Below, piece after piece: positions 1,690-49,341 of a stretch of 64,000 nt of DNA. Both the position numbers and the translations under genes were made by a program. The stretch is from a bacterium (GTDB lineage Bacteria > Patescibacteriota > Patescibacteriia > Patescibacteriales > UBA12465). Each line of letters starts with the position of its first letter. The first letter of the stretch is position 1. Under the pieces are notes generated by a model that did no database searches, was not told where the DNA came from, and worked only from the letters and a program-made list of their open reading frames with translations. The DNA lies in the NCBI GenBank assembly GCA_035402825.1, contig DAONDZ010000005.1, positions 8,276 to 72,275 on the forward strand, written 5' to 3'.

Positions 1690-1691
1690 AA

Positions 1692-3236
1692 TTATTCCAA
1701 GTTAAATCCAATATTTTTCAATTGTTTTTTTATTTCTTCATTTAATTTCTTTTCCTCCGCTATCTGCTCTGCAAGTTTAGCAGTTAGCCCTGTAATTTTA
1801 TCAAAAAAAGGAATGCCATCATCAATTTCATCTTGATTGCCAACATAGCGCCCCGGGGTAAGAACAAAGTTATGTTTAGTTATTTCATCTATACCAGCGG
1901 ATTTACAAAAACCTTTTATGTCTTCATATTTTCCATTTTGCTTGCGCCATTCGTGGTAGGTGCCAGCAACACGTGCCATGTCATCTTCGGAAAATTCGCG
2001 GTGCGTCTTGTCTGACATATGGCCGACTTCACTTGCGTCTATAAAAAGAATTTCACCGGTGCGTTTACGGTCACCGTTGCCTGTGCGTTTGCGAGAAATA
2101 AACCAAATACATGCTGGAATTCCAGTATTATAAAAAAGTTGTTTCGGAAGCGCGACAATACAATCCACTAAATCGTTTTCAACGAGCGACTTTCTAATAT
2201 CTCCTTCGTTGTTGGTTTGACTTGATAGTGAACCGTTGGCTAACACACACGCCATAACACCGTGTGGTGATAAATGGTAAATCATGTGCTGGAGCCACGC
2301 ATAATTGGCATTAGATGCGGGTGGTATACCATATTGCCAGCGAGGATCGTTTTGTAAAAGTTGTCCGGACCAATCACTGTCATTAAATGGTGGATTAGCA
2401 AGAACAAAATCAGCCTTAAGATCTTTGTGGGTATCATTTAAAAATGAGCCTTCGGTATTCCATTTTACCTGAGAGCCATCAATACCACGAATAGCAAGAT
2501 TCATTCGGCACAAGCGATAAGTCGTTTGGTTGCTTTCTTGACCATAAATAGAAATGTCCTCAACATTTCCGCGGTGTTCTTTGATAAATTTTTCACTCAT
2601 GATAAACATTCCGCCACTACCACACGCCGGGTCATATACTCTGCCTTTGTACGGCTCAATCATCTCTACCATGATGCGAACAATTGATTTTGGCGTGTAG
2701 AACTGGCCACCCTTCTTACCCTCTGCATTAGCAAATTCACCGAGGAAATATTCATATACCCTCCCAAGTAAATCCTTACTTTTTGCAGCCTCGGTACCAA
2801 GGGCGATATTACCCACAAGATCAATAAGTCCACCAAGTGAGGCTTTGTCCAAATTAGGACGAGCATATACTTTCGGGAGAATACCTTTAAGCGTCGGGTT
2901 TTCTTTTTCTATGGCCTCCATCGCATCATCCAAGTCCTTCCCAATGGATGGTAGTTTTGATCGAGAATGAAGATAAGACCAACGGGCAATTTGTGGCACG
3001 AAAAAAACATTTTCTGCGCGATACTCGTCGGCATCTTCAGGGTTTGCCCCTGCAAAATCATCGCCACCTACTTTTATTTTGTTATATAACTCCTCAAATG
3101 AATCTGAAATGTATTTCAGAAAGATAAGCCCAAGCACAATGTGCTTGTACTCAGCTGCATCCATATTCTTACGTAATTTATCAGCCGCCTTAAAAAGAGT
3201 CTTTTCAAATGATTCTGTTTTATTATCCTTTGCCAT
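1692..3236 (-). CDS. hsdM: Type I restriction-modification N6-adenine DNA methyltransferase subunit HsdM
   Basis: 514 aa, carrying the N6-MTase catalytic motif NPPF (LANPPFNDSDW) and the SAM-binding motif DPACGSGG. Confidence 0.9.
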   Translation of the reverse strand: MAKDNKTESFEKTLFKAADKLRKNMDAAEYKHIVLGLIFLKYISDSFEELYNKIKVGGDDFAGANPEDADEYRAENVFFVPQIARWSYLHSRSKLPSIGKDLDDAMEAIEKENPTLKGILPKVYARPNLDKASLGGLIDLVGNIALGTEAAKSKDLLGRVYEYFLGEFANAEGKKGGQFYTPKSIVRIMVEMIEPYKGRVYDPACGSGGMFIMSEKFIKEHRGNVEDISIYGQESNQTTYRLCRMNLAIRGIDGSQVKWNTEGSFLNDTHKDLKADFVLANPPFNDSDWSGQLLQNDPRWQYGIPPASNANYAWLQHMIYHLSPHGVMACVLANGSLSSQTNNEGDIRKSLVENDLVDCIVALPKQLFYNTGIPACIWFISRKRTGNGDRKRTGEILFIDASEVGHMSDKTHREFSEDDMARVAGTYHEWRKQNGKYEDIKGFCKSAGIDEITKHNFVLTPGRYVGNQDEIDDGIPFFDKITGLTAKLAEQIAEEKKLNEEIKKQLKNIGFNLE

Positions 3237-3237
3237 A

Positions 3238-3411
3238 TTATTTTTTAAGTAATTTTAATATTTCACTTTTTCTAAAACGTCGATCGCCTCGTTTACCAAA
3301 GCGAATACATTCAACCAGGCCATCCTTCTCCCATTGTCTAAGGGTGTTTGGGTGACAATTTAATAGTTCACAAGCCTGACTTAACTTTAATATTTCTTCA
3401 TTATTTTCCAT
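3238..3411 (-). CDS. Small helix-turn-helix DNA-binding protein (MerR/excisionase-family HTH), 57 aa, immediately upstream of hsdM
   Basis: Manually found ORF below the 60-aa cut-off of the track: MENNEEILKLSQACELLNCHPNTLRQWEKDGLVECIRFGKRGDRRFRKSEILKLLKK. The HTH_17-like pattern is (L..A.ELL......T...W...G.....R.G.R.RF). Confidence 0.55.
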   Translation of the reverse strand: MENNEEILKLSQACELLNCHPNTLRQWEKDGLVECIRFGKRGDRRFRKSEILKLLKK

Positions 3412-3476
3412 ATATATCTTGATTTTCTACTTAATATAACTTAACATTAGTATATATTATTACTATTGAAATTACA

Positions 3477-4244
3477 ATGATAAAAAATGACACAAAAAAT
3501 AAAGTTTCAGCAGCTCTGTTAAACGAATCATACTCTAGAATCATTGATATTTTTGAGGCAATTAAAAGTGGACTTATTTTATACACCGACGAAAACCTAA
3601 ATCAATGTTATATATCATTAGTCAAATCTATTAACAAAATTCTAGAAGAATCCTGTTATTCCGAGCTTAAAACGTTCGTGCCAGATTTTTATAAAGACAT
3701 AACAAGTAAAATAAACTTTATTGACCGAGAGTGGGATCAATATAAGGAAGAGCTTTATAATTTTTCTAGCAAAATTAATTCTTACTGTTTAACAATAGGA
3801 GCCAAAAAAGAAGTACTTAGTATTGATTTATGGAGTCCATTGTTTAATCAAATAGATGAAGCAATCACTAATCATCGCGAAACGGTAAAATATTTTTCTG
3901 AAAAACTATTAGAAAAACAAAATAACAATACCGAGAAAATAAAAATTAATATTTCCGATAATCGAGGGATATGGCGCAAAGATAATAAGACAATTCGTAT
4001 TTATGAAATAGGGATAAATACTAAAAGATTCATGATTATCAAATGTCTGAAAAACAAACAAAAAAGTGGACCTGCTTTAGCAAAATCCTACGCAAACAAT
4101 AGCCTCTCCCAGCTTAGCAAGGAGATTAAAAAAATTAACAGCCTGTTTAAAGAAAAACTTTTATTAAATGAAAATTTAATCGAAAAAGCTAACACGGGCG
4201 GATATGAATTAAATATTACTTTTTTTGATATAAATTTTGAATAA
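3477..4244 (+). CDS. Hypothetical protein (AT-rich island gene)
   Basis: 255-aa ORF followed by an intrinsic terminator; no recognisable motif. Confidence 0.45.
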   Translation: MIKNDTKNKVSAALLNESYSRIIDIFEAIKSGLILYTDENLNQCYISLVKSINKILEESCYSELKTFVPDFYKDITSKINFIDREWDQYKEELYNFSSKINSYCLTIGAKKEVLSIDLWSPLFNQIDEAITNHRETVKYFSEKLLEKQNNNTEKIKINISDNRGIWRKDNKTIRIYEIGINTKRFMIIKCLKNKQKSGPALAKSYANNSLSQLSKEIKKINSLFKEKLLLNENLIEKANTGGYELNITFFDINFE

Positions 4245-4283
4245 AAACAAAAAACCTTTAGTTGGTGTTAATAACTTTCTGGA

Positions 4284-4312
4284 AATGGCTTAATAGGCCA
4301 TTTTTTTGTTTA
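4284..4312 (+). terminator. Rho-independent terminator
   Basis: AAUGGC-UUAAUAG-GCCAUU hairpin followed by UUUUUUUGUUU. Confidence 0.6.
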
Positions 4313-4417
4313 TTAAGGTCAATAAAAAACCAATGATAAAAAATTCTAAAATACGGCAAAGTATAATTAAAGCTTTTTAATCCGGTGCACTGGTAATTTA
4401 ATAATAAAATTAAAATT

Positions 4418-4684
4418 ATGATTACCGACAAAAACAAACTGGAATACATCGACTATCGCGATGAATTTTCTACTTACGATATAGGTTTAGCTGCGGCCTT
4501 GGTTTCTTTTGGATACGAGCTTTGGGCTTTAGAAAAAGGAGAACCAAAGACAAAATTTATTTTTAAGCGTGAAACAGGTATCGAGAATACAGTTAATAGC
4601 TATTTTAACGGCAATCTGCAGGTTGATGCCCGAACAATTTTTGATAACCTAAAAATGCTCAAAAATCGCCTTTACAGTTTATGA
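4418..4684 (+). CDS. Hypothetical small protein, DUF5659-like (phage/plasmid-associated family)
   Basis: 88-aa ORF. The pattern ...ALVSFGYELWALEK...KFIFKRE...DARTIFDNLKMLKNRLY resembles DUF5659 members; the assignment is from memory, not a search. Confidence 0.4.
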   Translation: MITDKNKLEYIDYRDEFSTYDIGLAAALVSFGYELWALEKGEPKTKFIFKRETGIENTVNSYFNGNLQVDARTIFDNLKMLKNRLYSL

Positions 4685-4818
4685 AGCTTACCGGAAAAGA
4701 GATCGAGCGCTTTCAAAAAATCTATCAGGATATTTTTAACGAGAAAATAAGCTCTGATGATGCGCTTGGAAAAGGCATAGCCATAATAAACTTATTAAGA
4801 ATCGCTCTAAAAAATTAA
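4681..4818 (+). CDS. Hypothetical micro-protein (45 aa), translationally coupled to the preceding gene (ATGA overlap)
   Basis: Manually translated: MKLTGKEIERFQKIYQDIFNEKISSDDALGKGIAIINLLRIALKN. The start overlaps the stop of the 4418..4684 ORF. Confidence 0.3.
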   Translation: MKLTGKEIERFQKIYQDIFNEKISSDDALGKGIAIINLLRIALKN

Positions 4819-4824
4819 AATTAT

Positions 4825-5991
4825 ATGAACAAAGAATTCGAATATTTGGGAGCCGAGGAACTAACGGATATTCTAGGACTTACCATAAAAAAAGATAATA
4901 AAAATAAGCTTATTACTTTTCTTTGTGCCTTATCTGCTTATACAGAAGATTCCCAATTTAATTTAATCTTTAATGCTCCATCTTCAACTGGAAAAAGTTT
5001 TATTCCAACAGAAATAGCCAAACTTTTCCCAGCAGAAGATGTTATAGAAATCGCTTACTGCTCCCCAACCGCTTTTTTTCATGAGAACGGAAAATATGAC
5101 AAAGAACGAAACTCAATAATAATGGAACTATCTAATAAAATAATTATTTTTTTAGACCAGCCTCACTTGATGCTTCTTGAAAAACTTAGGCCGCTACTTT
5201 CTCATGATGCCAAAGAAATTAACCTTAAGATTACTGATAAGTCACAAAAGGGTGGTTTAAAAACCAAAAACATCATAATAAAGGGGTATCCTAGTGTTAT
5301 ATTTTGTAGCGCCAACATGAATATAGACGAACAGGAAGGCACTAGATTTATGGTGCTTTCACCAGAAGTGGATCAAGACAAGTTACGAGAATCCATAAGA
5401 GAGAAAGTACTTAAAGATACTGACATTGAAAAATATGCTACCTGGCTCGAACAAGACCCAAGAAGAATAAAATTAAGAGAACGAATACTGGCGATCAAGG
5501 CAGCAAAAATAAAAAATATTATTGTGCCCAACCCAGAAATAATATTAGAAAAATTTTTTGCAAGCAGAATTAAACTAAAACCACGTCACCAAAGAGATGT
5601 TGGGCGCATAATTTCATTAATAAAAGTTTCCGCTCTTATAAACCTGTGGCTCAGGGAAAAAGTTGGACCATCTATTATTTCTAATAATGATGATTTGGAC
5701 TTAGCCTTTTTGATCTGGAACAAAATATCAAAAAGCCAAGAATTAAATATCTCTCCTTACATTTTAGATATATACGAAAAAATAATTCTGCCCCTTTCGT
5801 CTGATAATCATGGATTAACAAAAAAAGAAATATTGGCAGAATACTACAAACGAAATGGGAGTTTTATTCCGGATTATCAATTAAGACAACAAATAATACC
5901 GACCCTAAAGGTGGCCGGATTAATTTCAGAGGACCCAGACCCTAAAGATGGTCGCTCAATTTTAATTAGACCCACAATGTATAGTGAGTGA
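4825..5991 (+). CDS. P-loop NTPase, SF3-helicase / primase C-terminal-like replication protein of a mobile element
   Basis: Walker A NAPSSTGKS, Walker B-like IIIFLDQ and a sensor-1-like VIFCSAN, spaced as in P4-type primase-helicase / D5-like ATPases. Confidence 0.5.
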   Translation: MNKEFEYLGAEELTDILGLTIKKDNKNKLITFLCALSAYTEDSQFNLIFNAPSSTGKSFIPTEIAKLFPAEDVIEIAYCSPTAFFHENGKYDKERNSIIMELSNKIIIFLDQPHLMLLEKLRPLLSHDAKEINLKITDKSQKGGLKTKNIIIKGYPSVIFCSANMNIDEQEGTRFMVLSPEVDQDKLRESIREKVLKDTDIEKYATWLEQDPRRIKLRERILAIKAAKIKNIIVPNPEIILEKFFASRIKLKPRHQRDVGRIISLIKVSALINLWLREKVGPSIISNNDDLDLAFLIWNKISKSQELNISPYILDIYEKIILPLSSDNHGLTKKEILAEYYKRNGSFIPDYQLRQQIIPTLKVAGLISEDPDPKDGRSILIRPTMYSE

Positions 5992-6027
5992 TACCGTGGG
6001 GTAAATTTATAAATTAATTTAAATTAT

Positions 6028-6270
6028 ATGAAAAACAGTGAAAAAATCATTATAACTATGTTATTTGATGAAGAAATAATTCAATGTTGTGCCGAGTCTA
6101 CAATTAAAAGAAGATTAAGTAACCTGGAATTAAACCGCCTAAGTCTTTGCTGGCCAAATTTTGATTGCACCGGTGGCGCAAGAAACGAAATCATGGAACA
6201 GTTTATTAAAGAAGTTATTGATCATGAAGACATTTGGGCGGACAAGGAATATTTTAAGTTAAAAAAATAA
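6028..6270 (+). CDS. Hypothetical small protein
   Basis: 80-aa ORF with a Cys-containing N-terminal half. Confidence 0.3.
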   Translation: MKNSEKIIITMLFDEEIIQCCAESTIKRRLSNLELNRLSLCWPNFDCTGGARNEIMEQFIKEVIDHEDIWADKEYFKLKK

Positions 6271-6600
6271 CGACAAAGGTGCGACAAATAAATTTAATAG
6301 AAGAAATCAAAACTTAAAAAATCGTGTTATCAGCGAGTAACCAATACAAAAAGAGTTAACAATATAATTTTCTTATTAAATATTAAACTAAATATAGCAA
6401 AACTTAGTACCCTTTTTTCGAGAATATAACCGGACAAAACCGGACAATAAAACGAGACAATGAGAACATTTTAAGAGTTTAGAAAATAGTAAAAAATACC
6501 CACGTTCTTTAAAAGTTTTAAAAACTACAACAATATAACGACAAAATTAAGCCTAAATCAAAGCTTTTTATTAGATCATGGGGCGGCCCTAAAATTGACA
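6241..6600. repeat. Cluster of at least 8 GACAA-core short repeats in an AT-rich, ORF-free region (iteron-like; putative origin or recombinase-binding region)
   Basis: GACAAGG, CGACAAAGG, GCGACAAATA, CCGGACAAAA/CCGGACAATA (tandem 10-mers at 6430-6449), CGAGACAATG, AACGACAAAATT and TTGACAAATT. Confidence 0.35.
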
Positions 6601-6625
6601 AATTAGCTTGATAACTAGTGCTTTC

Positions 6626-6634
6626 TGTGATAAT
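6626..6634 (+). promoter_or_regulatory. Extended -10 promoter (TGtGATAAT) driving the structured RNA element
   Basis: TG at 6626-6627 and GATAAT at 6629-6634. An upstream TTGATA/TTGACA lies at suboptimal spacing. Confidence 0.4.
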
Positions 6635-6640
6635 CTATAA

Positions 6641-6801
6641 GCGACTACCCAATTAAATGTTCACGAAACTAAGGCCCGTTTGACGGTTAGCCCGTCTTTG
6701 TCTCGCACTTGCGGATAAAGATGGGCAGTTAACCTTCCACAAGCGAGACCTTTGGGCCTTCGTGAACAGTGGGTAGTCAGGTTTGACTGCCCTTTTTTGT
6801 T
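6641..6801 (+). ncRNA. Unclassified highly structured RNA / riboswitch-like leader
   Basis: Nested long-range helices:
- GACUACCCA(6643-6651)/UGGGUAGUC(6770-6778)
- GUUCACGAA/UUCGUGAAC
- AAGGCCC/GGGCCUU
These enclose two hairpins (GACGG-UUAGC-CCGUC; GUCUCGC...GCGAGAC). An alternative terminator GGGUAGUC-AGGUUU-GACUGCCC plus U6GUU reuses the 3' strand of the outer helix. Confidence 0.5.
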
Positions 6802-6828
6802 GGGCAGATTATAATTAAAATAAAAATT

Positions 6829-7344
6829 ATGAGCAATGAAAACAAGCTCCTGGACGGAGCTAAAAAATCGTCCATCATGAATTGGGTTAAGAAACACAAG
6901 ATCTTAACCGCCATTATAATTATCTTCGTAATCGGACTGATCGGTAGTGCCATGGGGGAAGATAAAAGCACTAATAACAATATCGTCGCAAATCCTGAAG
7001 CTAATAAACCAGAAGAAAAGCAACCGGTCCAGGAGCCAGAAAAACCCAAGACTTGGACTAGCGTTTACAAAGTAACAGCAAACTCAGACAAACAAACTGA
7101 AAACTTTTCCCTTGATGGCGGACAACAGAAAATAGTATATAAGACTACCGGCAACAGCTCACTCTGCTATGTCTACGTTCTAAAGGAAGGAGCAACGCTA
7201 GACAAGAACGGCGGAATGCCAGTTGTATCAATCGACGGCGAACAAGCCGACGAAACGATGATGAGAAAATCCGATGGAAACTATTACTTGGATATCAAAA
7301 CAGTAAATGGTAGTTGCCAAATAGAAGTTCAGGAACTTAAATAA
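6829..7344 (+). CDS. Small membrane-anchored (N-terminal TM/signal-anchor) extracytoplasmic protein, hypothetical
   Basis: 171 aa with a hydrophobic segment ILTAIIIIFVIGLIGSAMG, then a low-complexity linker and a Cys-containing domain. Confidence 0.5.
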   Translation: MSNENKLLDGAKKSSIMNWVKKHKILTAIIIIFVIGLIGSAMGEDKSTNNNIVANPEANKPEEKQPVQEPEKPKTWTSVYKVTANSDKQTENFSLDGGQQKIVYKTTGNSSLCYVYVLKEGATLDKNGGMPVVSIDGEQADETMMRKSDGNYYLDIKTVNGSCQIEVQELK

Positions 7345-7360
7345 AAATGAATAACCATAA

Positions 7361-7387
7361 AAGACCGCTCCAAGGCGGTCTTTTTAA
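7361..7387 (+). terminator. Rho-independent terminator
   Basis: GACCGC-UCCAAG-GCGGUC followed by UUUUU. Confidence 0.6.
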
Positions 7388-7396
7388 AAACATAAT

Positions 7397-9040
7397 ATGA
7401 CAAATCAAAACAATAATATTAAATACTTTCTTTACGCAAGAAAGTCGTCCGAAAGTGAAGATAAGCAAGTGGCTTCTATTGATGCTCAAATTGATGAGCT
7501 CAAAAAAATATCTAAAGAAAATAATTTAGAGGTAGTTGAAATCCTATCAGAATCACAATCAGCCAAGAAGCCGGGACGCCCCGTCTTTAACTCAATGTTA
7601 GAAAGAATTTATAAAGGCGAAGCAACTGGTGTTTTATGCTGGAAAATTAATCGTTTAGCAAGAAACCCAATCGACGGCGGGAAAGTATCCTGGATGCTTC
7701 AGGAAGGCACTATTAAACACATACAAACCTTTGGTCGAAGTTATTACCCTAGTGATAATGTTTTAATGATGGCCGTTGAATTAGGAATGGCCAATCAATT
7801 TATTAAGGACCTAAGTGTCGACACAAAAAGAGGTTTAAGGGCTAAGGCTGAGCGTGGCTGGTATCCGACATTCACATCTTTAGGCTACAAACACAATCCA
7901 TTAAAGATAAAAGGAGAAAAAGAAATAGTTGATGATCCGGAAAAGTTTCATTTACTGAGAAAAATGTTTGACCTAATGCTAACTGGCCATTATCCAGTAA
8001 AAAAGATTCTTGATATTGCAACTAACGAATGGGGCTTGAGAAATAAAAAAAATAAAAAGGTTGCTATAAGCACCTTTTACAGAATTCTATCAGACCCCTT
8101 CTATTATGGTAACTTTGAATATCCTCAAGGCAGCGGAAATTGGTATAAAGGAAAACATAAACCAATGATTACTATAAATGAATTTGAGCGCATTCAAAAA
8201 CTATTAGGCAAAGAAACAAGTGCGCGTCCTCATAACAAAGAATTTGCTTTTACAGGATTAATGCGGTGTGGCGAATGCGGAGCTATTATAACTGCCGAAG
8301 CTAAAGTTAAAAGTTATAAGAATGGAAATATTCATAATTATACTTACTACCACTGCACAAAAAGAAAAAATCCGAATTGTTCTCAGAAATGCATTCGAGT
8401 AGAAACCTTAGAGAAACAAATAAGCGAAGAAATAAAACAAATATTTTTACCTAAAGAATTCTGTAGTTGGGCGCTAGAAGTTTTAAGCCGTGAAACCCGC
8501 GAAAACGGTCAAGATCGAGCCCAGCTCATATCTAAGCATAAAAAGGAATACGACGCTGTAGTGACCAAAATAAACGGTATAATAGACATGAGATCAGCTG
8601 GAGAGCTAACTGCCGAAGAATTTAATGAGCGTAAAATAGAGCTGAGCCGAGAAAAAGAGAAATTACAAGAACTTTTAAAGGATGTAGAAGAAAATGAAAA
8701 CAACTACACCGAAAAGGCGAACAGCCTTTTCCTTTTCGCAGAAAAGATTTGTGAAAAATTTATAAATGGAGATTTAAAGGACAAAGGAATAATACTTTCC
8801 TGCTTAGGTTCGAACCTCACATTAATCAACGGAAAATTGGAGATTTCATTGCAAAAACCACTAATACACATCAAAAATTTATCGCAAAATTTACACGCGA
8901 AAAATGAAGCGTTAGAACCAATGAAAAATGGCGAATATAAAAGAAAAACAGGCTCTTTCGAGTCTGCTTTTCCGATGTTGCTCCCGGGGTGGGATTCGAA
9001 CCCACGACCAATTGATTACACTTATCCACTAGTTTCCTAA
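7397..9040 (+). CDS. Large serine recombinase (integrase/transposase-type); C-terminal about 20 codons overlap tRNA exon 2 and the intron
   Basis: Resolvase-domain catalytic motif YARKSS near the N-terminus, a recombinase domain, a Cys-rich zinc ribbon (CGECG...C..C) and a coiled-coil C-terminus. The ORF reads through 8981-9040. Confidence 0.85.
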   Translation: MTNQNNNIKYFLYARKSSESEDKQVASIDAQIDELKKISKENNLEVVEILSESQSAKKPGRPVFNSMLERIYKGEATGVLCWKINRLARNPIDGGKVSWMLQEGTIKHIQTFGRSYYPSDNVLMMAVELGMANQFIKDLSVDTKRGLRAKAERGWYPTFTSLGYKHNPLKIKGEKEIVDDPEKFHLLRKMFDLMLTGHYPVKKILDIATNEWGLRNKKNKKVAISTFYRILSDPFYYGNFEYPQGSGNWYKGKHKPMITINEFERIQKLLGKETSARPHNKEFAFTGLMRCGECGAIITAEAKVKSYKNGNIHNYTYYHCTKRKNPNCSQKCIRVETLEKQISEEIKQIFLPKEFCSWALEVLSRETRENGQDRAQLISKHKKEYDAVVTKINGIIDMRSAGELTAEEFNERKIELSREKEKLQELLKDVEENENNYTEKANSLFLFAEKICEKFINGDLKDKGIILSCLGSNLTLINGKLEISLQKPLIHIKNLSQNLHAKNEALEPMKNGEYKRKTGSFESAFPMLLPGWDSNPRPIDYTYPLVS

Positions 9041-16628: not shown

Positions 16629-18014
16629 TTAAAACTCAGCGTTTTTAGGAGTCCGCGGAAAAGGAATCACATCGCGAATATTGGCCATACCGCTTAGATA
16701 CATCACTAAGCGTTCAAAGCCCAAACCGAAACCACCATGTTTGACGCCGCCATATTGGCGCAAGTCCAAATACCATTGATAGTCCTCGGGACAAAGGTTG
16801 AATTGTCTCATTCGAGCCTCTAGCTTCTCCAAGCGCTCTTCTCTTTGGCTGCCGCCGATAATTTCTCCCACCCCCGGCACCAAGAGATCCATAGCGGCCA
16901 CAGTTTGGCCGTCATCGTTTAAGCGCATATAGAAAGCTTTGATTTTCTCCGGATAGTCAGTCACAAAAACCGGTCCTTTAAAAACCTCATCGGTCAAATA
17001 ACGCTCATGTTCGGTTTGCAGATCAATTCCCCATTTCACCGGATAGCTAAACTTCTGGCCGGATTTCTCTAAAATACCTATCGCCTCAGTATAGGTCAAA
17101 CGCTTAAAATCAGCCTGAGCTAGTTTTTCCAAACGAGCGATTAAACCTTTTTCAATAAACTCATCAAAGAATTTCATTTCTTCCGGCAATTCTCGCAAAG
17201 CATAGTTAATCAGATATTTCATCATCTCTTCCGCTAAGTCCATGTCATCGTTTAAATCGGCAAAATAGATCTCCGGCTCCAACATCCAAAACTCAGCCGC
17301 ATGGCGCGTAGTGTTAGAGTTTTCGGCTCTAAAGGTCGGCCCAAAAGTATAGACCCGGTTAAAAGCCAAGGCCATGGCTTCGGCATTCAATTGGCCGCTG
17401 ACCGTTAGTCCAGCCTGGCGTCCGAAAAAATCCTGGCTATAGTCCACTCGACCCTCTTTGTTGAGCGGAGTGTTTAATAAATCCAAAGTAGTGACATTAA
17501 ACATCTCCCCGGCCCCTTCGCAATCAGAGGTAGTGATAATCGGCGTGTGGGCATAAACAAAACCTTTTTCTTGAAAAAATTTGTGGATAGCAAAACTCAA
17601 CCCAGACCGCAAGCGGAAGACCGCAGAAAAAGTATTAGTCCGGGAACGCAAATGAGCGATGGTCCGCAAGAATTCAAAAGAGTGGCGCTTCTTCTGCAAA
17701 GGATAGTCAGCTTGAGACAATGATTCAATAATTATTTCTTTAGCCTGCAATTCAAAATCCTGTTCAGCCTTCGGAGACTTAATCAATTTGCCTTTGACGG
17801 TTAAAGCCGAACCCAGGCCGGCTTTTTCCACTTCGGAAAAATTAGACAAAGCAGCTTCATAGACCACTTGCAGGGGCTTAAAAAAGGTACCATCATTTAA
17901 TTCAATAAAACCAAACTCTTTAGAAGAGCGACTATTTCTAATCCAGCCTTTAACCTCAATTTCTTGATCCAAAAAATCAGCTGTCTGTTTATATAAATCC
18001 TTGATGTAAGTCAT
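16629..18014 (-). CDS. asnS: Asparaginyl-tRNA synthetase
   Basis: Class II motifs, including [21 protein letters not shown] (motif 2, AsnRS-type), [17 protein letters not shown] and motif 3 [13 protein letters not shown]. Confidence 0.85.
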
Positions 18015-18023
18015 ATAATTGAA

Positions 18024-19322
18024 TTATGGTCTTAAGCGCTTCACATCACGAGGCAAATAATTAGCCTCTTTGATATTAGACAAACCTAAAAGCTTCATCA
18101 CAATGCGAGCCGGACCAATACCTACGCCGCCGTGGCTGGGAATGCCGTAGCGGAAAAAATTCAGATAGTCAGACAGCTCTTCTAAGTTCATACCCTTGGC
18201 TTGAGCTTGTTTTTCTAAAATCTCAATGCGATGCTCTCTCTGGGCGCCGGTAGTGATTTCTAAACCGCGATAGAGCAAATCAAAACTCTTGGTTAACTCC
18301 GGATTATCTTCGCGCACCATGTGATAGAAAGGGCGGGCCGAAACCGGATAGTCAGTGACAAAAACAAAATCATGGCCGGTCTCAGCTTTTATAATTTCAG
18401 AAATTCCCCTCTCTTCTTCCGGGGTAAAATCATCGCTGGCTTCCGATTTAATTCCCTTGGCCGCTAATTTCTCTTTAGCCTGAGCAAGAGTAAGGCGCGG
18501 GAAAGGCTGAGTCGGGACAGTAATATCCAAAGCTAATTTTTCTTTGACCTGCTGAAATCCAGCCACTAACATACCCTCTTCTTGGTCCATAATCTCTTCG
18601 TGAGATGAGATGTTAGCTATTTCAAAATCCCAACCGGTGAACTCGGTGACATGGCGGTTAGTGAAAGATTTTTCGGCGCGATAGACAGTACCAACCATAA
18701 AAACTTTTTCTAAGCCGGCGGCCATGGCCATCTGTTTATAAAATTGGGGTGATTGGGCTAAATAAGCTTTGCGGTCAAAATATTTTACCTCAAAGACATC
18801 AGCGCCGGTTTCCGAAGCGGTATTCATTAAGGTCGGAGTATAGATCTGCAAAAAATTATGCTCATCAAAATAACGACGGCAGCCTTTTTCCAATTCGGTC
18901 CAAACCTTAAAAATCATTTGCTTTTCCGGCTGACGCAAATCTAAAAAGCGCCAATCCAGACGTAAGTCAATATCGGCTTCATTATCAATCTTATTCAAAA
19001 CCGGAATCGACAATTGCTCCAAAGCCAAAGATTCAATCTTTAACTCCGTGGCCAATAATTCAAAATCTTTTTTATCCTCTTCCCCCTTCTTGGCCGGTTT
19101 AGCCTGCAAGGTTCCGGTGACGGTGATATAGCTTTCTAGAGTCAAGGTTTCCGCTTGATTATAGACCGCTTCATGATCGGCCGCCATCACCACTTGCATC
19201 ACTCCGGACAAATCTCTCAAATCCACAAAAACCACCCCCTTATGAGCACGTTTGTTATACACAAAACCAGATAATACCACCTCTCCCTGGCCTTGGCTTT
19301 TAGCTTGGTTGATAGACATCAT
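18024..19322 (-). CDS. aspS: Aspartyl-tRNA synthetase, short archaeal/eukaryal-type (possibly non-discriminating)
   Basis: 432 aa; class II motif 2 YRAEKSFTNRHVTEFTGWDFE and motif 3 GGVGIGPARIVM, with no bacterial-type insertion domain. Confidence 0.7.
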   Translation of the reverse strand: MMSINQAKSQGQGEVVLSGFVYNKRAHKGVVFVDLRDLSGVMQVVMAADHEAVYNQAETLTLESYITVTGTLQAKPAKKGEEDKKDFELLATELKIESLALEQLSIPVLNKIDNEADIDLRLDWRFLDLRQPEKQMIFKVWTELEKGCRRYFDEHNFLQIYTPTLMNTASETGADVFEVKYFDRKAYLAQSPQFYKQMAMAAGLEKVFMVGTVYRAEKSFTNRHVTEFTGWDFEIANISSHEEIMDQEEGMLVAGFQQVKEKLALDITVPTQPFPRLTLAQAKEKLAAKGIKSEASDDFTPEEERGISEIIKAETGHDFVFVTDYPVSARPFYHMVREDNPELTKSFDLLYRGLEITTGAQREHRIEILEKQAQAKGMNLEELSDYLNFFRYGIPSHGGVGIGPARIVMKLLGLSNIKEANYLPRDVKRLRP

Positions 19323-19383: not shown

Positions 19384-20097
19384 CTAAAAAACACTATATT
19401 CCACTATTTTGGGGATAATTCCGATAATTTCCAAACGAATCTCTTCCGGCAGTTGAAACTTCTCTAAAAATGGCGAATCTTCGGACAATATTAATCGCAT
19501 CACCTTAATCGCTCCGTCAGACAAAGCCACTACTATCCCGGCTTCCCTTTCGGGACGACAATGAACGCAAACAATTTCTCCTCCTTCAGACTTGAAATGA
19601 TTAGCCCCGGCCACTAGCTCCTGCTGGCAATGGGCGCAATGATATAGATCTGGCTGGTATCCCAAGAGAGCGATTAATTTCAAACTAAAAGCCTGAAGCA
19701 GCCACTCCGGATCAGCGGTCTTTTCCATGGCCTGTAAAAAAGAAATTAATAGTGTAAACAGCTCGCCATCGGCGTGCTCTAAATGGACTAGGCGGTTAAA
19801 AAGGTTAAAACCCAGACCGCTATAATAGACTTTATTCAGATCTGATTTAATACCGCTATAAGCATCAACATTAATGGCGCTGCCGACATAATGACGATTT
19901 TTGCCGCGAATGACCATTAAATTAATCAGAGTTATCGGTTCTAAGTGAGCGGCCAGCTTGGAACTGGGACGCAGCATGCCGCGAGCCACTAAATCCAATT
20001 TTCCTTTTTGAGGACTGTATACTAAAACGCGGCCATCAAATTCTCGATGCGCCTCGCGTTTCAAAACTATCGCGGGAGTAGAATATGTTTCTTCCAT
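19384..20097 (-). CDS. recO: DNA repair protein RecO
   Basis: OB-fold N-terminus and a C-terminal Cys4 zinc finger (CAHC...CVHC). Confidence 0.7.
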   Translation of the reverse strand: MEETYSTPAIVLKREAHREFDGRVLVYSPQKGKLDLVARGMLRPSSKLAAHLEPITLINLMVIRGKNRHYVGSAINVDAYSGIKSDLNKVYYSGLGFNLFNRLVHLEHADGELFTLLISFLQAMEKTADPEWLLQAFSLKLIALLGYQPDLYHCAHCQQELVAGANHFKSEGGEIVCVHCRPEREAGIVVALSDGAIKVMRLILSEDSPFLEKFQLPEEIRLEIIGIIPKIVEYSVF

Positions 20098-20486
20098 TAG
20101 GTTAATAATAATCCGTCTAAATAATTTTGCAAAATTAACATCGCCGCTACGGCATCCCTTTCCGCCTTATCCTCTTTTTCTCCCACTAAGGCATCAGCGG
20201 CTAAGCTGGAAAGCCGTTCATCGGCTAAGTTCACTTTCACTCCGGCCTCGGCTTCTAACTTTTTCCTAAAAGCTAAAAAATCAGGATTAGCCTCGGCGCC
20301 GGACATTTTTTTCGGTTCTCCCAAAACTATTTCATCTATTCCTTCGCTGTTTATCACCTCTAAAACCGCGAACAAAGAATCAACCACCTTAAACGGCAAA
20401 GCTAAACCGGTTTCACTATCGGCTAAAGCCAAACCAATTCGTTTTTCTCCCCAATCAACTCCTAAATATTTAATATTCTCTTCCAT
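20097..20486 (-). CDS. ruvX: Holliday-junction resolvase-like RuvX/YqgF
   Basis: YLGVDWGEKRIGLALAD N-terminal motif of the YqgF family. Confidence 0.8.
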   Translation of the reverse strand: MEENIKYLGVDWGEKRIGLALADSETGLALPFKVVDSLFAVLEVINSEGIDEIVLGEPKKMSGAEANPDFLAFRKKLEAEAGVKVNLADERLSSLAADALVGEKEDKAERDAVAAMLILQNYLDGLLLT

Positions 20487-20487
20487 A

Positions 20488-21267
20488 TTATTGGGTTAAG
20501 ATCACCGGGCCCTTTTTGGTAATGGCCACGGAATGTTCAAAGTGAGCGCTTAGCGATCCATCAGCGGTCAAAGCGGTATAGCCATTCTTAGCTATTTTCA
20601 CTCGCCAAGAACCAGCATTAATCATCGGCTCAATCGCCAAAACCATGCCCGGCTCTAAAACTATATTTTCCGGAGAACGCGGTCCGATTTCGTAGTTAAA
20701 GACATCAGGCTCTTCATGGGCTTGGTGGCCGACGCCATGGCCAACAAAATCCTTCACCACGCCATATCCTTGGTTGACGCAATATTCTTCAATTACCTTA
20801 CCAATATCATTTAAAGTATTGCCCGGTTGAGCCATCTTGATACCCCGATACAAAGATTGTTCGGAAACTTTCAAAAGTTTGCGAGTGGCTTTGTCCACCT
20901 TCCCCACGGCCACGGTATAACAAGTGTCGGTGAACAAACCATTGCCTTTCGGCCATTTCATGCCAATATCTAAATCCACAATATCGCCGGAACGCAATAT
21001 CCTCTCCGGCAAAGCTGGACCATGAACCACTTCGTCGTTTATAGAAACACATAAAGCGGTAGGAAAGAATATTCCCCCGCCCATCGGGTAGTCTTTAAAG
21101 GCTGGTTCCCCGCCCGCCTGAGCAATCATTTTTAAGGCTGTTTCTTCCAAAACCGCCGTACTCAATCCAGGCTTCACCATCTTCACTAGATGCCTCAAAA
21201 TTAGGGCTAATTTATGCCCTCCTTGCCGCATTAGTTCTATTTCCGCCTCATTCTTCAGTCTAATCAT
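20488..21267 (-). CDS. map: Methionine aminopeptidase type I
   Basis: Pita-bread fold metal ligands (D..D...H...E...E) and FVGHGVGHQAHEEP. Confidence 0.85.
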   Translation of the reverse strand: MIRLKNEAEIELMRQGGHKLALILRHLVKMVKPGLSTAVLEETALKMIAQAGGEPAFKDYPMGGGIFFPTALCVSINDEVVHGPALPERILRSGDIVDLDIGMKWPKGNGLFTDTCYTVAVGKVDKATRKLLKVSEQSLYRGIKMAQPGNTLNDIGKVIEEYCVNQGYGVVKDFVGHGVGHQAHEEPDVFNYEIGPRSPENIVLEPGMVLAIEPMINAGSWRVKIAKNGYTALTADGSLSAHFEHSVAITKKGPVILTQ

Positions 21268-21352
21268 ATAGCCTCATTTTAGCACCAATTATCGCCCTCT
21301 TCAACCATTTGACAATATTTAACAATTATTATGTAATTCAAGTTTAAAAATA

Positions 21353-21383
21353 CCCACAAAAAAGCTACCCTTCCAGGTAGCTT
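21353..21383 (-). terminator. Rho-independent terminator downstream of the pilin-like gene
   Basis: On the minus strand, AGCUACC-UGGAAG-GGUAGCU followed by UUUUUUGUGGG. Confidence 0.6.
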
Positions 21384-21399
21384 TTATTATTTTCAATTA

Positions 21400-22980
21400 T
21401 TATTTGCTCGGTTCTTCATTAGCCGGCGGATTAGCCCCTTCCGCCCAGCTAGTTAGAGTGTGATCATAGACCGAAGTGCCAGAAACATCAGTATAATACC
21501 AGGCGGTAGGCGGATCGGTATTCCAGCGATACATTAATCGGACGCCTTCTTCTCCGGGTTCTAGCTCCCAGCTATAGAGAACATCATAATAGCGGTAAGA
21601 GCCATCGTCAATCAAGGTGGTAGCTAAAGGAGTGCTAGAGAATACTTTTAACCCACTTTCAGTGTGATAAGAATAAGCATTGAAAGTTCGGGAGATACCA
21701 TAAGCGCCATAAGAGAAATAGAACATATCGGGCGGCGTAATATCCCAGGCAGAATATCCACTGTCCTGAATGGAGTTAGTAGTAATATCTTTGTAATAAA
21801 CTGCACTAGCGGCCGTTTCGGCAGCAGTTTGAATTCCGCCGAGATATTCTAGCAGACCAATAATATCGGTGATAAAATCATCAACTAAAATTCGAGCGGC
21901 AGTGGCATACCCCTGAGCGGCGCCGGTAGTAGCGGCATTATACGCCAAATCCAACTGAGTTCTAAGAGCATTATTTCTATTCACCATATCTTGCAAATCA
22001 GTAGTGACCGAAGGGGCCATGCCTAAATCCAGGCTCAAAAGATATTCTAGTTGACCGTTTATATCCATACTGGCATAGATTGCCTCTTGAGTAATGGATC
22101 TAATATCATTTAATGAAAAAGTACCGCCCTCAATCATCACCATCAGCTCTCTGATTCGGGTTAAACGATCATTGATGCCCTGCAAGGTTCCTTCAGCTGT
22201 CTGGCATTTATTAATAATATCATATTGAGTCGAGGCCTGAGAGGAATTACTTTTTAAAACTAAATAACCATCGGCATCCGGTGAAGCCGTCCAGCTCCAA
22301 TCAATGTTATAACTACCGCTAGAACTATCATCAGTAACATCTATGCTGGCCGCATCGCTAACATAGCGATAGCCATCAATAAGTTTATAAGCATAAACCT
22401 GGATAGATTGATTGGAACCATTGGTTGTATAATTTCCACTGCCATAGTTAATAGTACCAACCGGATTGGTGGCCGGAGATAAATACCAGGTAATTGTCGC
22501 TTGCAAAGTGCCGGCAGAACCGCTCAAACTGCAATCGCTGTTATACACTCCTCCCGGAGTGGCACATTTAGGACCGGAAGCTAGAGAACCAGTATTGTTT
22601 CCCAAACAATAAGATAAAGTATAAGAAGCGCCGTCTTCGGTCTGTTGATAATATAAAGTGTTTTGATCAGAAGTACAGTTGCCGTCCGGAGTAGTCGGAG
22701 CGGCGGGAATTATTTTTAAATAAGTAGTCAGCGGGTTACTAGAGCTAGACATAATAGAACCAGTTTCCCACTCCTCTGGAGTCGGATAACGACCCTGGTC
22801 ATTAAAAAACAATTCCAAGGCGGTTTGAACTTGCTTCACATCTCCAACTCTTTTAGCATCGCGAGATCTGGCTCGGGCACTGCTTAGAGCAACTACCGAT
22901 AGAGACGCCAGGAGGCCGATAATGGCAATCACCACTAACAGCTCCACCAGGGTAAAGCCCTTTTTTTGTTTTATCATCAT
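21400..22980 (-). CDS. Type IV pilin-like protein (prepilin N-terminal cleavage/methylation domain) with a large C-terminal domain
   Basis: N-terminal KKGFTLVELLVVIAIIGLLASL (class III signal peptide) then ARSRDAKRVGDVKQVQTALELFFNDQGRYP; 526 aa. Confidence 0.8.
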   Translation of the reverse strand: MMIKQKKGFTLVELLVVIAIIGLLASLSVVALSSARARSRDAKRVGDVKQVQTALELFFNDQGRYPTPEEWETGSIMSSSSNPLTTYLKIIPAAPTTPDGNCTSDQNTLYYQQTEDGASYTLSYCLGNNTGSLASGPKCATPGGVYNSDCSLSGSAGTLQATITWYLSPATNPVGTINYGSGNYTTNGSNQSIQVYAYKLIDGYRYVSDAASIDVTDDSSSGSYNIDWSWTASPDADGYLVLKSNSSQASTQYDIINKCQTAEGTLQGINDRLTRIRELMVMIEGGTFSLNDIRSITQEAIYASMDINGQLEYLLSLDLGMAPSVTTDLQDMVNRNNALRTQLDLAYNAATTGAAQGYATAARILVDDFITDIIGLLEYLGGIQTAAETAASAVYYKDITTNSIQDSGYSAWDITPPDMFYFSYGAYGISRTFNAYSYHTESGLKVFSSTPLATTLIDDGSYRYYDVLYSWELEPGEEGVRLMYRWNTDPPTAWYYTDVSGTSVYDHTLTSWAEGANPPANEEPSK

Positions 22981-23040
22981 AAATAAAAATAAAGTTTATC
23001 TAAGACTATTTTACTACACTTCTCCCCTTCTGACAACAGG

Positions 23041-23071
23041 AAAAACAAAAAAGCTGCCTGTAGAGGCAGCT
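23041..23071 (-). terminator. Rho-independent terminator downstream of secY
   Basis: On the minus strand, AGCUGCCU-CUAC-AGGCAGCU followed by UUUUUUGUUUUU; the hairpin is palindromic, so it could act bidirectionally. Confidence 0.65.
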
Positions 23072-23094
23072 TTTTCTATATTCACTTCAGTTGA

Positions 23095-24363
23095 TTATAA
23101 TCCATCATATTCCCGCATGGTCAGCTGGGACTTAATCTGTTTGACCATATCAATCACCACCGAAACTACGATCAACAAGCTGGTGCCGCCGATAGCCAAA
23201 GACTGGATGCCGGTGAAGTAGCGCATAATTAAAGGCAAGATAGCGATGATGCCTAAAAACAAAGCGCCGACTAGAATAATCTTGTGGGTGGTGTTGCCCA
23301 AATATTCTTCGGTCTGTTGACCCGGACGAATACCAGGAATGAAGCCACCATTCTTCTGCAAGTTTTCCGCAATCTGTTTGGGGTGGAAAATAACTTCGGT
23401 ATAGAAATAGGTAAAAGCAAAAACTAACAAAAAATAGATGATGCCGTAGAATAATTGATTCTGGAATAAAGCGATAGTCTTCTCTGCTCCGGTTACCAGC
23501 CAAGCCGTTTTGGCATGCAAGAAGAATTGAGCGATCATGGACGGGAACATGATAATGGAAATAGCAAAGATGATCGGAATCACACCGGCCATGTTGACGC
23601 GTAACGGCAAATGAGTATTGGTGCCGCCAAAAGCGCGGGAACCTCTGATTTGACGAGCGTATTGAATCGGAATATTGCGCTGGCCTTCGTTGATAATAAC
23701 CACGCCGATAACGGTCACTAAAGCTATCACCACGAAACCTAGCAATAAGAATAATTGAGATTTATCAAAAGTCAAAAATAGCTGGCTGGCCGCCTGCGGT
23801 AAAGCTGCGACGATACCGGCGAAGATTAATAAGGAAATACCATTACCAATCTTCTTTTCAGAAATCAATTCGCCTAACCACATCAGGAACATGGTGCCGG
23901 CGGTAATCGCCACCATCATCACTATCATATCAAAACTGGAAACATTGTTTAAAACACCGGTAGCGGAACGTCCCAAAAGATTGATCATGGCATAAGACTG
24001 CAGTAAAGCCAACGGCACGGTAGCCCATCTGGTCCAAGTAGTAATCTTTTGGCGACCGGATTCTTCTTTCTGCATTTCTTCTAGTTTCGGCACAATCATG
24101 CCTAATAATTGGAAAATAATAGAAGAGGTGATATAAGGACCGACACCCATCATGACAATGGAGAAATTCTTCATGCCACCGCCGGAAAATAAGTCCATCA
24201 TGCCAAGCAATTGATTGGAACTAAAAAGCTGACGTAGAGCTAAAGTGTCAACGCCAGGAACTGGAATATGGGCAATCAAACGGAAGATAACCAACATGCC
24301 TAAAACAAAAAGGATCTTATTTCTGACATCTCTGGCCTTCCATAACTGTCTCAATTTTTCCAT
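23095..24363 (-). CDS. secY: Preprotein translocase subunit SecY
   Basis: 422 aa with 10 TM segments and the conserved SecY N-terminus. Confidence 0.9.
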   Translation of the reverse strand: MEKLRQLWKARDVRNKILFVLGMLVIFRLIAHIPVPGVDTLALRQLFSSNQLLGMMDLFSGGGMKNFSIVMMGVGPYITSSIIFQLLGMIVPKLEEMQKEESGRQKITTWTRWATVPLALLQSYAMINLLGRSATGVLNNVSSFDMIVMMVAITAGTMFLMWLGELISEKKIGNGISLLIFAGIVAALPQAASQLFLTFDKSQLFLLLGFVVIALVTVIGVVIINEGQRNIPIQYARQIRGSRAFGGTNTHLPLRVNMAGVIPIIFAISIIMFPSMIAQFFLHAKTAWLVTGAEKTIALFQNQLFYGIIYFLLVFAFTYFYTEVIFHPKQIAENLQKNGGFIPGIRPGQQTEEYLGNTTHKIILVGALFLGIIAILPLIMRYFTGIQSLAIGGTSLLIVVSVVIDMVKQIKSQLTMREYDGL

Positions 24364-24373
24364 ATTGGTAAAA

Positions 24374-24790
24374 TTAGAGTTGCTTTTTTAAACCTTCACT
24401 CATTTTGACGCTCTGGAATTTTAGGTCCTTCACGGTCAATTTCTCTTTGCCTAAAATCTTTACCGGTTGATGATCATCTTTCACCAAGCCTTTTTCCTTG
24501 AGGGTCAAAGGGGAAACTATTTCATTAGGTTTGTAGTTGGCATTAATAATGGTCACGGAAACAACTTGGTTCTTCGGGTGTTGGGATTTAAAACCGCGAG
24601 CTTTCGGAATCTGCAATAGTTGCTTCTTCATGCCCAAACGCTTCAAACCGGAAGCGCCGCTTCTAGACTTCTGCCCTTTCAAACCACGAGTACTATAAGT
24701 ACCATGACCGGAAGCGTTACCGCGACCGACTCTTTTTTTCTTCTTTAATCCGCCAGAGGATTTTTTGATGGCATTTAGTCCTAAAGACAT
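24374..24790 (-). CDS. rplO: 50S ribosomal protein L15
   Basis: KRVGRG..SG.GKT..RG.KGQ motif. Confidence 0.85.
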   Translation of the reverse strand: MSLGLNAIKKSSGGLKKKKRVGRGNASGHGTYSTRGLKGQKSRSGASGLKRLGMKKQLLQIPKARGFKSQHPKNQVVSVTIINANYKPNEIVSPLTLKEKGLVKDDHQPVKILGKEKLTVKDLKFQSVKMSEGLKKQL

Positions 24791-24812: not shown

Positions 24813-25418
24813 TTATTTTGTTTCTGTTTCTTCTTTTTTGGCGCGGGGTTCTACCTTCTTCAAGCTCTTTAAAGCCGCTACGGTACAACGAGCATTATTA
24901 ATCTTATTGCCGCCGCCTAAAATCTTGCTGGTGACATTTTTCACACCGGCTAATTCTAAAATGATTCTCACCACGCCGCCGGCTTTAACACCGCTGCCCT
25001 GCTTGGCCGGTTTGAAGACGATCCAAGAAGCACCCATAGTTTTACGGACTTCGTGAGGAATAGTATCGTTAATCAAATTAACATGCACCATATTCTTCTT
25101 GGCCTGGTTCACGGCTTTATTTACCGCCAAGGTCACATCAGCGCCCTTGCCTAAGCCAATACCGATATTGCCATTCTTGTCACCCAAAGCAATACAAGCT
25201 CTGAAGCTCATACGTTTGCCGCCCTGCATCACGCGGGTTACCCGAGCGATGTCCAGCATTCTTTGTTCAAACTCTTCCTGACGTTTCGGTCCACGATTGC
25301 GACCACGGAAACCGCCGCGATCACCACCCGGTCTCTGGCCATAGACAGTCTTAGCGACAGCTTCAGCCACTTTCTGTTCGGTATTTTGATTGTCTTGAGT
25401 CTTTAATTCTTCGGACAT
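24813..25418 (-). CDS. rpsE: 30S ribosomal protein S5 (with N-terminal extension); L15 follows directly, so no L30 gene
   Basis: S5 dsRBD and C-terminal domain sequence; only 22 nt separate it from rplO. Confidence 0.85.
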   Translation of the reverse strand: MSEELKTQDNQNTEQKVAEAVAKTVYGQRPGGDRGGFRGRNRGPKRQEEFEQRMLDIARVTRVMQGGKRMSFRACIALGDKNGNIGIGLGKGADVTLAVNKAVNQAKKNMVHVNLINDTIPHEVRKTMGASWIVFKPAKQGSGVKAGGVVRIILELAGVKNVTSKILGGGNKINNARCTVAALKSLKKVEPRAKKEETETK

Positions 25419-49101: not shown

Positions 49102-49341
49102 TTAGAGGCGATAAGTCACCCGTCCTTTGGTCAAGTCATAAGGGCTCATTTCCACCCTTACCTTGTCTCCCGGCAGCAACTTAATTTTATTCATCCGCAT
49201 CTTGCCAGATAAATGAGCCAATATTTCATGACCGCTGTCCAAAGCCACTTTGAAAGTGGCGGACGGCATCAGTTCTAAAACCTCGCCTTCGGTTTCAATG
49301 AAATTCTTAGAATCAATGTTTTGATTGTCACCTTTAGACAT
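49102..49341 (-). CDS. infA: Translation initiation factor IF-1 (the track ORF is N-terminally over-extended; likely start at the internal MSKGD)
   Basis: S1-like OB-fold sequence …[32 protein letters not shown]…. Confidence 0.8.

Follow-up and report, generated by a model that had tools for sequence, protein, structure and literature searches.

The window analyzed here is a 64-kb stretch of DNA (64,000 nucleotides; contig DAONDZ010000005.1) whose pilin gene belongs to a Falkowbacteria-like bacterium (Patescibacteria, ABY1-type). This gene lies on the minus strand between secY and map (21400..22980, stop codon included, as taken from the list of open reading frames [ORFs]) and encodes a 526-residue protein that NCBI annotates as a [quoted passage not shown] and nothing further. 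We consider it likely that the protein is a modular type IV pilin bearing a graft of three domains, in which a helical domain derived from the D1 domain of bacterial flagellin is enclosed by two beta domains, that the graft is probably adhesive, and that the gene forms a unit of its own within a gap of variable content.

A Modular Type IV Pilin, as Judged from Sequence

The protein starts with MMIKQKKG|FTLVELLVVIAIIGLLASL. Residues 1–8, those before the bar (22957..22980, minus strand), constitute a predicted class III (prepilin) leader with Gly at −1, Phe at +1, and Glu at +5, a G|FTLVE motif, and a predicted cut before Phe9. An initial annotation of this DNA had placed a 526-residue protein with a prepilin N terminus between secY and map, and this description is borne out by two family models that both score above their cutoffs, namely Pfam N_methyl (PF07963; 32.6 bits versus 21.2) and TIGR02532 (31.9 bits versus 16.3). 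The leader is followed by the pilin module (residues 9–152; 22525..22956, minus strand), which consists of the hydrophobic α1 helix and a small head with four invariant cysteines (C102, C125, C139, and C150). AlphaFold2 (AF2) models analyzed with DSSP place a helix at residues 11–56 and four strands at residues 89–136, with a predicted local distance difference test (pLDDT) score below 50 in this region. In a profile search of the PDB, the family profile matches solved pilins and GspG, over α1 only. The N-terminal ∼150 residues are common to more than 250 Patescibacteria pilins (55–67% identity) that carry other C-terminal domains, including FISUMP (PF09603), LamG, and Ig-like domains, and several such pilins can share one contig. 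On this sequence evidence, the protein is a modular type IV pilin, in which a pilin module is joined to domains not specific to pilus biology.

The C-terminal part is rare. Only about six known sequences carry the beta-D1-beta modules, comprising the window protein (P0001), four full-length homologs of 512–513 residues that are 47–49% identical to it (P0002–P0005), and P0121, the product of a complete gene for 406 residues, which shares the C-terminal part (40% identity over 420 residues). An exhaustive HMMER scan of 1.84 billion representative proteins recovered the pilin family as three clusters at 50% identity. The C-terminal module was found in no viral contigs, and a metagenome scan found P0003 again and no other member. 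When used as a single-sequence query, the C-terminal 375 residues matched themselves alone; this search was uninformative because of its word prefilter, so that profile searches were needed, and the small size of the family limits the depth of the profiles.

A Helical Domain Derived from Flagellin D1

Profile comparisons show that residues ∼246–395 (21796..22245, minus strand), a predicted four-helix bundle, descend from bacterial flagellin D1 and lack both D0 segments. The initial annotation had noted a long C-terminal domain, which is indeed present, and had missed this flagellin-derived part of it. The first sign was a sub-threshold match to Flagellin_N, together with several matches to FliC and FlgL models, at residues 244–300. 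When a profile built from five family members was run against all PDB sequences, nearly all of the top ∼40 matches were flagellins, the best (E = 1.5e-6) covering FliC residues 69–118, which belong to ND1. A six-member profile searched against 5.8 billion proteins gave 51 matches at E ≤ 1e-3 (best E = 1.2e-9), every one a flagellin with both PF00669 and PF00700. Genuine flagellin-domain proteins (P0172, P0195, and P0152) were also recovered by the profile of the whole C-terminal region in the exhaustive HMMER scan of the 1.84 billion representatives.

Alignment of the family profile with single short flagellins by hhalign gave probabilities of 92.5% over 127 columns and 96.95% over 147 columns (E = 1.3e-10), and paired family residues ∼251–398 with flagellin residues 66–218 of 269. 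A MAFFT alignment restricted to the domain is collinear and keeps the flagellin signatures QTAEG, QRxRE(L), and (L)GxxQ; the QTAEG..LQRxREL motif corresponds to ND1 and the RxxLGxxQ motif to CD1, and both lie within the hhalign columns. Five residues (Q260, D292, E299, G381, and Q384) are invariant across this alignment. A composite MAFFT alignment of the family, the pilin modules, and flagellin segments misplaced flagellin ND1 on pilin α1 and was discarded. As a single sequence, the family member P0121 passes the Pfam Flagellin_N model (45.3 bits versus a cutoff of 26.6). The D0 segments of flagellin (the N-terminal ∼65 and C-terminal ∼50 residues) are absent from the domain, Flagellin_C (PF00700) has no match in the window protein, and the neighbors of the domain are beta domains and a pilin module. 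The protein therefore carries a D1-derived domain and does not count as a flagellin.

An AF2 model of the isolated domain (pLDDT 89.6; predicted template modeling score 0.83), for which the underlying alignment contained flagellins, has helices at residues 246–285, 290–316, 323–347, and 352–399. The same four helices were obtained in a full-length run on five sequences, which had a pLDDT of 52 and was poor outside the helical domain. In our reading of the model, the D1 core has closed up as a compact bundle, an additional helix taking the place of the hairpin or of the D2/D3 excursion.

According to a review of the phylum, flagellar genes are largely absent from it, whereas the core gene set of type IV pili is near-universal (PMC13293708). 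The D1 domain therefore probably came from another lineage and does not belong to a flagellum in this bacterium. Two of the flagellin-domain proteins recovered above have architectures other than that of a flagellin. P0152 (1374 residues) combines three Flagellin_N stretches with a SpaA domain and an LPXTG anchor, and P0195 (633 residues) has three D1-like repeats behind a hydrophobic, pilin-like N terminus (MKEQKGITLLALVITIIVLL). It may be more common for flagellin D1 to be reused as a surface module.

Paralogous Beta Domains and a Model for Function

The helical domain is preceded by beta domain A (residues ∼155–245; 22246..22518, minus strand), which profile matches assign to an unannotated repeat type, and followed by its paralogous copy, beta domain B (residues ∼396–512; 21445..21795, minus strand), for which profile positions 239–359 match the same kinds of proteins. 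The two domains align in register and match each other in BLASTP comparisons within the family. The repeating unit of ∼80 residues bears the signature (I/V)xVYAY...Y(S)...DD.S...Y.I.WSW..V.GA.GY and has no sequence match in Pfam or the PDB. Profile searches found the unit, often repeated, in dozens of large proteins that lack Pfam annotation. Some of these proteins also carry Peptidase_S74, K1-lyase_C, or YadA_head domains, or match tail-fiber PHROGs, and such domain company is usual for phage receptor-binding proteins of the tail-fiber or tail-spike type.

These features can be assembled into a model. Following pilin biology and PMC8179133, a prepilin peptidase would remove the eight-residue leader and Phe9 would become N-methylated, after which assembly machinery with genes elsewhere in the genome would polymerize the hydrophobic α1 into a type IV pilus. 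We infer this assembly step, because the 64-kb window contains no type IV pilus machinery. The ∼375 grafted residues, with the predicted D1-derived four-helix domain between the two beta copies, would be displayed most likely at the pilus tip or sparsely along the pilus, as expected for other bulky modular pilins, where they would probably recognize or adhere to some surface, with that of a host cell the most plausible. The adhesive role is probable by analogy; recognition of a host or substrate is suggested by the phage receptor-binding company that the beta domains keep and by the part that pili play in Patescibacteria.

Weighing the Alternatives

Several observations weigh against the explanation we favor. 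By itself the window protein reaches 18.0–18.6 bits against the Flagellin_N cutoff of 26.6, and four of the six family members give no flagellin match as single sequences. Foldseek searches with the full-length and D1-only models returned generic four-helix bundles, with no match at E ≤ 1e-3; the best template modeling scores (0.72–0.75) belong to a chemoreceptor ligand-binding domain, and flagellin appears at rank 31 with a poor root-mean-square deviation. On structure, the models are neutral, neither backing nor refuting the link to flagellin. The beta domains and the pilin head are modeled poorly (AF2 pLDDT below 50), a prepilin peptidase and a second pilin are missing from the window along with the pilus machinery, and adhesion is argued from analogy and domain company only. 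The generic Foldseek results and the sub-threshold and missing single-sequence matches would suit a reading in which the likeness to flagellin reflects convergence or the composition of long amphipathic helices, the domain being an unrelated four-helix bundle between beta-sandwiches. We regard this as very unlikely, since all significant profile matches in three independent databases are flagellins, ∼147 collinear columns keep both signature motifs, the intermediate P0121 exceeds the curated Flagellin_N cutoff, and the E-values of 1e-9 to 1e-10 come from HMMER and hhalign, both of which correct for composition.

Other readings concern the filament. It is unlikely that the protein is a pseudopilin of type II secretion or of competence (Com-type DNA uptake) rather than an adhesive type IV pilus subunit. 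Its N terminus matches GspG best (TIGR01710, E = 4.5e-13) and also matches ComGC, relatives are labeled "general secretion pathway protein G" in the sources, and comEC lies within the window (41274–42686). However, the GspG and ComGC matches fall far below the equivalog cutoffs and cover the shared α1 alone, comEC is 18 kb away and unlinked, a 526-residue subunit with a large exposed module is ill-suited to short periplasmic pseudopili, and Patescibacteria are reported to attach to their hosts by type IV pili. The protein could also be the major subunit of a thick pilus coated by beta-D1-beta modules, and thus a structural sheath instead of a rare tip adhesin. None of the 120 best relatives with the pilin module is shorter than ∼290 residues, so that large modular pilins may be the rule in this clade, possibly as major subunits, and flagellin D1 is self-associating by origin. 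The extreme rarity of the family, the several paralogous modular pilins per genome, which better fit alternative or minor subunits, and published modeling that puts bulky modular pilins at the tip (PMC8179133) make a coat of this kind highly improbable.

Beyond the modular adhesive pilin that we favor, there is a very slim chance that the exposed D1 bundle keeps some of its ancestral subunit recognition, either docking by mimicry on the filament, cap, or hook junction of a host flagellum, or self-associating into a flagellum-like sheath on a type IV pilus core. If docking were true, an episymbiont of the candidate phyla radiation (CPR) that lacks flagella would catch its hosts by their flagella using a pilus; with either docking or a sheath, the two great filament systems of bacteria would be functionally combined in one protein.

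A Self-Contained Transcription Unit Flanked by a Repeat

According to Pfam, the minus-strand gene order is secY, which ends the spc ribosomal-protein operon and is the upstream flank (23095..24363; SecY E = 3.8e-106), the 526-residue pilin ORF, map, which encodes methionine aminopeptidase and forms the downstream flank (20488..21267, minus strand; Peptidase_M24 E = 2e-41), and then ruvX (20097–20486, minus strand) and recO (19384–20097, minus strand), both with strong Pfam matches. The strong terminator after secY and the separate terminator of the pilin gene that the initial annotation described are both present as hairpins with T-runs. A terminator scan placed the intrinsic terminator of secY at 23040..23076 (minus strand), with a 12–13 bp stem and a 4-nt loop. 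Its G+C-rich hairpin (23047–23076) begins 18 nt past the secY stop codon and has a calculated folding energy of −19.4 kcal/mol (z = −4.3), which none of 200 shuffled sequences equaled. The intrinsic terminator of the pilin gene (21354..21385, minus strand) has a 10-bp stem and a 6-nt loop, and its hairpin (21360–21385) folds at −15.5 kcal/mol (z = −4.1). Between the secY terminator and the pilin ATG lies a σ70-like promoter candidate (23008..23036, minus strand; TTGTCA-17-TAAAAT), proposed from its match to the consensus alone at 10 of 12 positions and located 28 nt 5′ of the ATG. A second promoter-like site (21288..21315, minus strand; TTGTCA-16-GATAAT) precedes the map-ruvX-recO unit. The pilin gene thus forms a self-contained unit of promoter-like site, coding sequence, and terminator.

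A repeat search of the window showed that the two terminators flanking the pilin gene form an imperfect 43-nt direct repeat, copy 1 (23045..23087) spanning the secY terminator and copy 2 (21356..21398) located at the pilin terminator, with 77% identity between them. The stems differ by a compensatory A/G:T/C change, and the stem motif AAAAGCTRCC..GGYAGCTTTT occurs only twice in the window against an expectation of zero; the stems of the remaining terminators in the window are unrelated to it. This suggests that the flanking terminators are diverged copies of one 43-nt sequence and that insertion proceeded via terminator duplication or recombination, and the repeat may be the footprint of a cassette insertion. 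Against this, a 77% likeness between two short A/T-rich terminators is suggestive of duplication and not proof of it. Rfam matches at the secY terminator (Phe_leader and RsaF) fell below the gathering score and were dismissed as hairpin artifacts.

The possibility that the contig is chimeric at the pilin locus is unlikely, because twelve concordant contigs carry the gene and base composition is flat. The identical protein is encoded on 12 independently assembled contigs (from JGI, Logan, ENA, and NCBI; one is JGI 3300009694 Ga0116170_10000365), it has the same secY and map neighbors on 11 of the 12, and GC content does not shift across the junctions of the pilin gene. The source samples may be anaerobic-digester metagenomes. 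On these grounds, as far as can be judged without reads, chimerism, the one objection that the initial annotation had raised against its own account of the locus, was rejected.

A Recent Insertion into a Variable Gap

For comparison, we collected 80 SecY loci from species-representative genomes (SecY 60–93% identical to that of the window) of Falkow-, Magasanik-, Buchanan-, Uhr-, and Komeilibacteria and other Patescibacteria; secY and map were both present in 63 loci, to which the adk and ruvX counts refer. The secY-map slot holds a pilin of this family in none of the 80 genomes, and the comparison of gene order proposed in the initial annotation marks the insertion as peculiar to the window's genome. 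L003, the closest relative (SecY 93% identical), lacks the pilin and has 374 nt in the gap. In blastn alignments with L003, homology ends at the secY stop codon (23094) and restarts at 21313, 46 nt before the map ATG and within the promoter-like site of the map unit; the 344 nt of L003 between these ends are unrelated to the window. The L003 gap holds a 112-residue ORF with hydrophobic stretches and no Pfam match on the opposite strand (8299–8637, minus); cargo of the slot therefore differs even between genomes with 93% identical SecY. Three of the four full-length homologs had a readable gene context, and all three lie outside the secY-map slot: P0002 and P0004 adjoin an ABC transporter and a radical-SAM gene, whereas P0003 adjoins a small secreted protein. 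Because L003 lacks the pilin and the readable homologs are located elsewhere, the position of the pilin between secY and map is lineage-specific and recent.

The remaining peculiarities of the locus are shared more widely. The initial annotation had also remarked on the absence of adk. We found no adk between secY and map, nor anywhere in the window in tblastn searches with the Escherichia coli and Bacillus subtilis Adk sequences, yet its absence from the slot is not confined to this genome: 47 of the 63 loci have the order secY-adk-map and 16 lack adk at this position, as do 14 of the 21 closest loci (SecY at least 69% identical). The alpha operon does lie apart, as had been stated, with infA-rpmJ-rpsM-rpsK-rpsD-rpoA-rplQ-rplM-rpsI at about 49341–45205 on the same strand as the pilin gene (infA at 49341–49108 and the rplQ end of the alpha-operon block at ∼46076). 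This separation is not special to this genome. Because infA occurs within 7 kb of secY in none of the 80 loci and ruvX follows map in 57 of 63, as it does in the window, the entire clade can be said to keep its alpha operon apart from map. Of the lineage-specific rearrangement claimed earlier, then, the pilin insertion stands, whereas the map-ruvX order and the lack of adk at this position are shared with relatives.

Among relatives the distance from secY to map ranges from 106 to 5678 nt, and 14 of the 21 closest loci have one or more extra ORFs of at least 150 residues in the gap. The cargo includes pairs of an ABC ATPase and a MacB/FtsX permease, Na/Ca exchangers, TerC/DUF475 and CARDB proteins, ∼750-residue unknown ORFs, and two families of ∼95–100-residue proteins. 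The possibility that inserted ORFs of relatives are pilins was rejected on annotation, a regular-expression match to "prepilin" in L004 being spurious. A terminator follows secY in every relative examined, and each is different. Given these differing terminators and the varied cargo, the gap is an inter-operon space that tolerates insertions and, in the closer relatives, a slot of variable cargo. The pilin is one cargo among many and does not amount to evidence of special selection for pili at this locus; the earlier remark that the rearrangement is in keeping with a reliance on pili is accordingly overstated. In this clade, the end of the "ultra-conserved" spc operon tolerates accessory envelope genes, a point to bear in mind when synteny of ribosomal-protein genes is taken as a marker or used to test contigs for chimerism.

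The two families of small ORFs lie directly 3′ of secY, have no Pfam match, and recur in relatives that lack adk there. The ∼95-residue family is found in L015, L018, L019, L025, L049, and L057, and the ∼100-residue family in L022, L023, L024, L028, L034, and L061; example starts are MP..KLP.GG..FR.SGSSGFARK... and M.L.DFL.K.KD....

Other Features of the Window

A low-GC stretch at 475–9040 (0.30–0.35 versus ∼0.43 elsewhere, most pronounced at 3–9 kb) carries the type I restriction-modification genes hsdS (475–1689) and hsdM (1692–3236), three ORFs without a Pfam match (3477–4244, 4825–5991, and 6829–7344), and a gene for a large serine recombinase (7397–9040). The stretch has the appearance of an integrated mobile element or an island.

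The rpoA product (46446–47231; 261 residues) matches RNA_pol_A_bac and RNA_pol_L. Because no match to the C-terminal domain of the alpha subunit was found at E ≤ 0.001, the predicted RNA polymerase alpha subunit may lack that domain. In the spc operon, the S5 gene (24813–25418) is followed after 22 nt by a gene for a 138-residue protein (24374–24790), which we take to be L15 by position and sequence motif only, and no rpmD (L30) lies between them. Loss of L30 is typical of CPR bacteria. After recO, two class II aminoacyl-tRNA synthetase paralogs stand side by side (16629–19322), one AspRS-like (432 residues) and the other AsnRS-like (461 residues). The pair is kept in L003, L022, and L024, while other relatives have a bacterial-type AspRS of ∼600 residues instead.

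Significance and Relation to Known Systems

The modular-pilin concept has been published, with examples listed from Falkowbacteria and Magasanikbacteria (Raynaud et al. 2021, PMC8179133). The word "flagellin" was not found in the text or in the searched supplementary tables of that survey, and targeted searches of open-access text brought up no account of a bacterial flagellin domain in a pilin or in CPR bacteria. The modular type IV pilin is thus already known as a kind, and its flagellin-derived module was not found described. Modular pilins are thought to be the means by which simple pili gain many functions, and CPR bacteria (Patescibacteria), as far as is known, attach to their hosts mainly by pili. 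The conserved polymerization core of flagellin can, it appears, be freed of D0 and reused as a surface module on another filament, here in a lineage without flagella of its own. The protein thereby links parts of two filament systems in evolution, gives an uncultured group a candidate for host recognition, and supplies structural work with a compact D1-only protein.

With the modular pilins of Streptococcus sanguinis, PilB (vWA) and PilC (lectin), the window protein shares a class III signal peptide, a small pilin module, and a bulky graft not specific to pilus biology, and it differs in that the graft consists of a beta domain, a D1-derived bundle, and a second beta domain. The FISUMP-, LamG-, and Ig-type pilins of Falkowbacteria and other Patescibacteria (P0006–P0120) have in common with it the ∼150-residue pilin module with invariant cysteines, at the 55–67% identity given above, and the presence of several paralogs per genome, whereas their C-terminal modules are unrelated. 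Archaellins likewise use a type IV pilin-like N terminus to drive assembly of a filament subunit with a larger globular part. They are, however, without homology to bacterial flagellin, while the protein described here is bacterial and has a domain derived from bacterial flagellin; Arch_flagellin has no Pfam match in it at E ≤ 0.01.

Among the significant profile matches in the PDB are entries for a flagellin homolog of Sphingomonas sp. A1 (2zbi, 3k8v, and 3k8w), a flagellin-family protein that reportedly binds polysaccharide (alginate) at the cell surface. In contrast to the window protein, this homolog is a full flagellin with D0, is exported by the flagellar route, and is not fused to a pilin. 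The closest counterpart of the helical domain is D1 of FliC, best represented by short flagellins of ∼270 residues without D2/D3 (P0212–P0262; PDB 9au6, 10pl, and 1ucu), with which it shares a collinear arrangement of ND1a, ND1b, the connecting region, and the first half of CD1. Unlike FliC, the pilin protein is without D0 and hence without the type III export signal and the inner-tube helices, and its D1-derived domain sits between beta domains on a pilin, where it is predicted to form a closed four-helix bundle with an extra helix.

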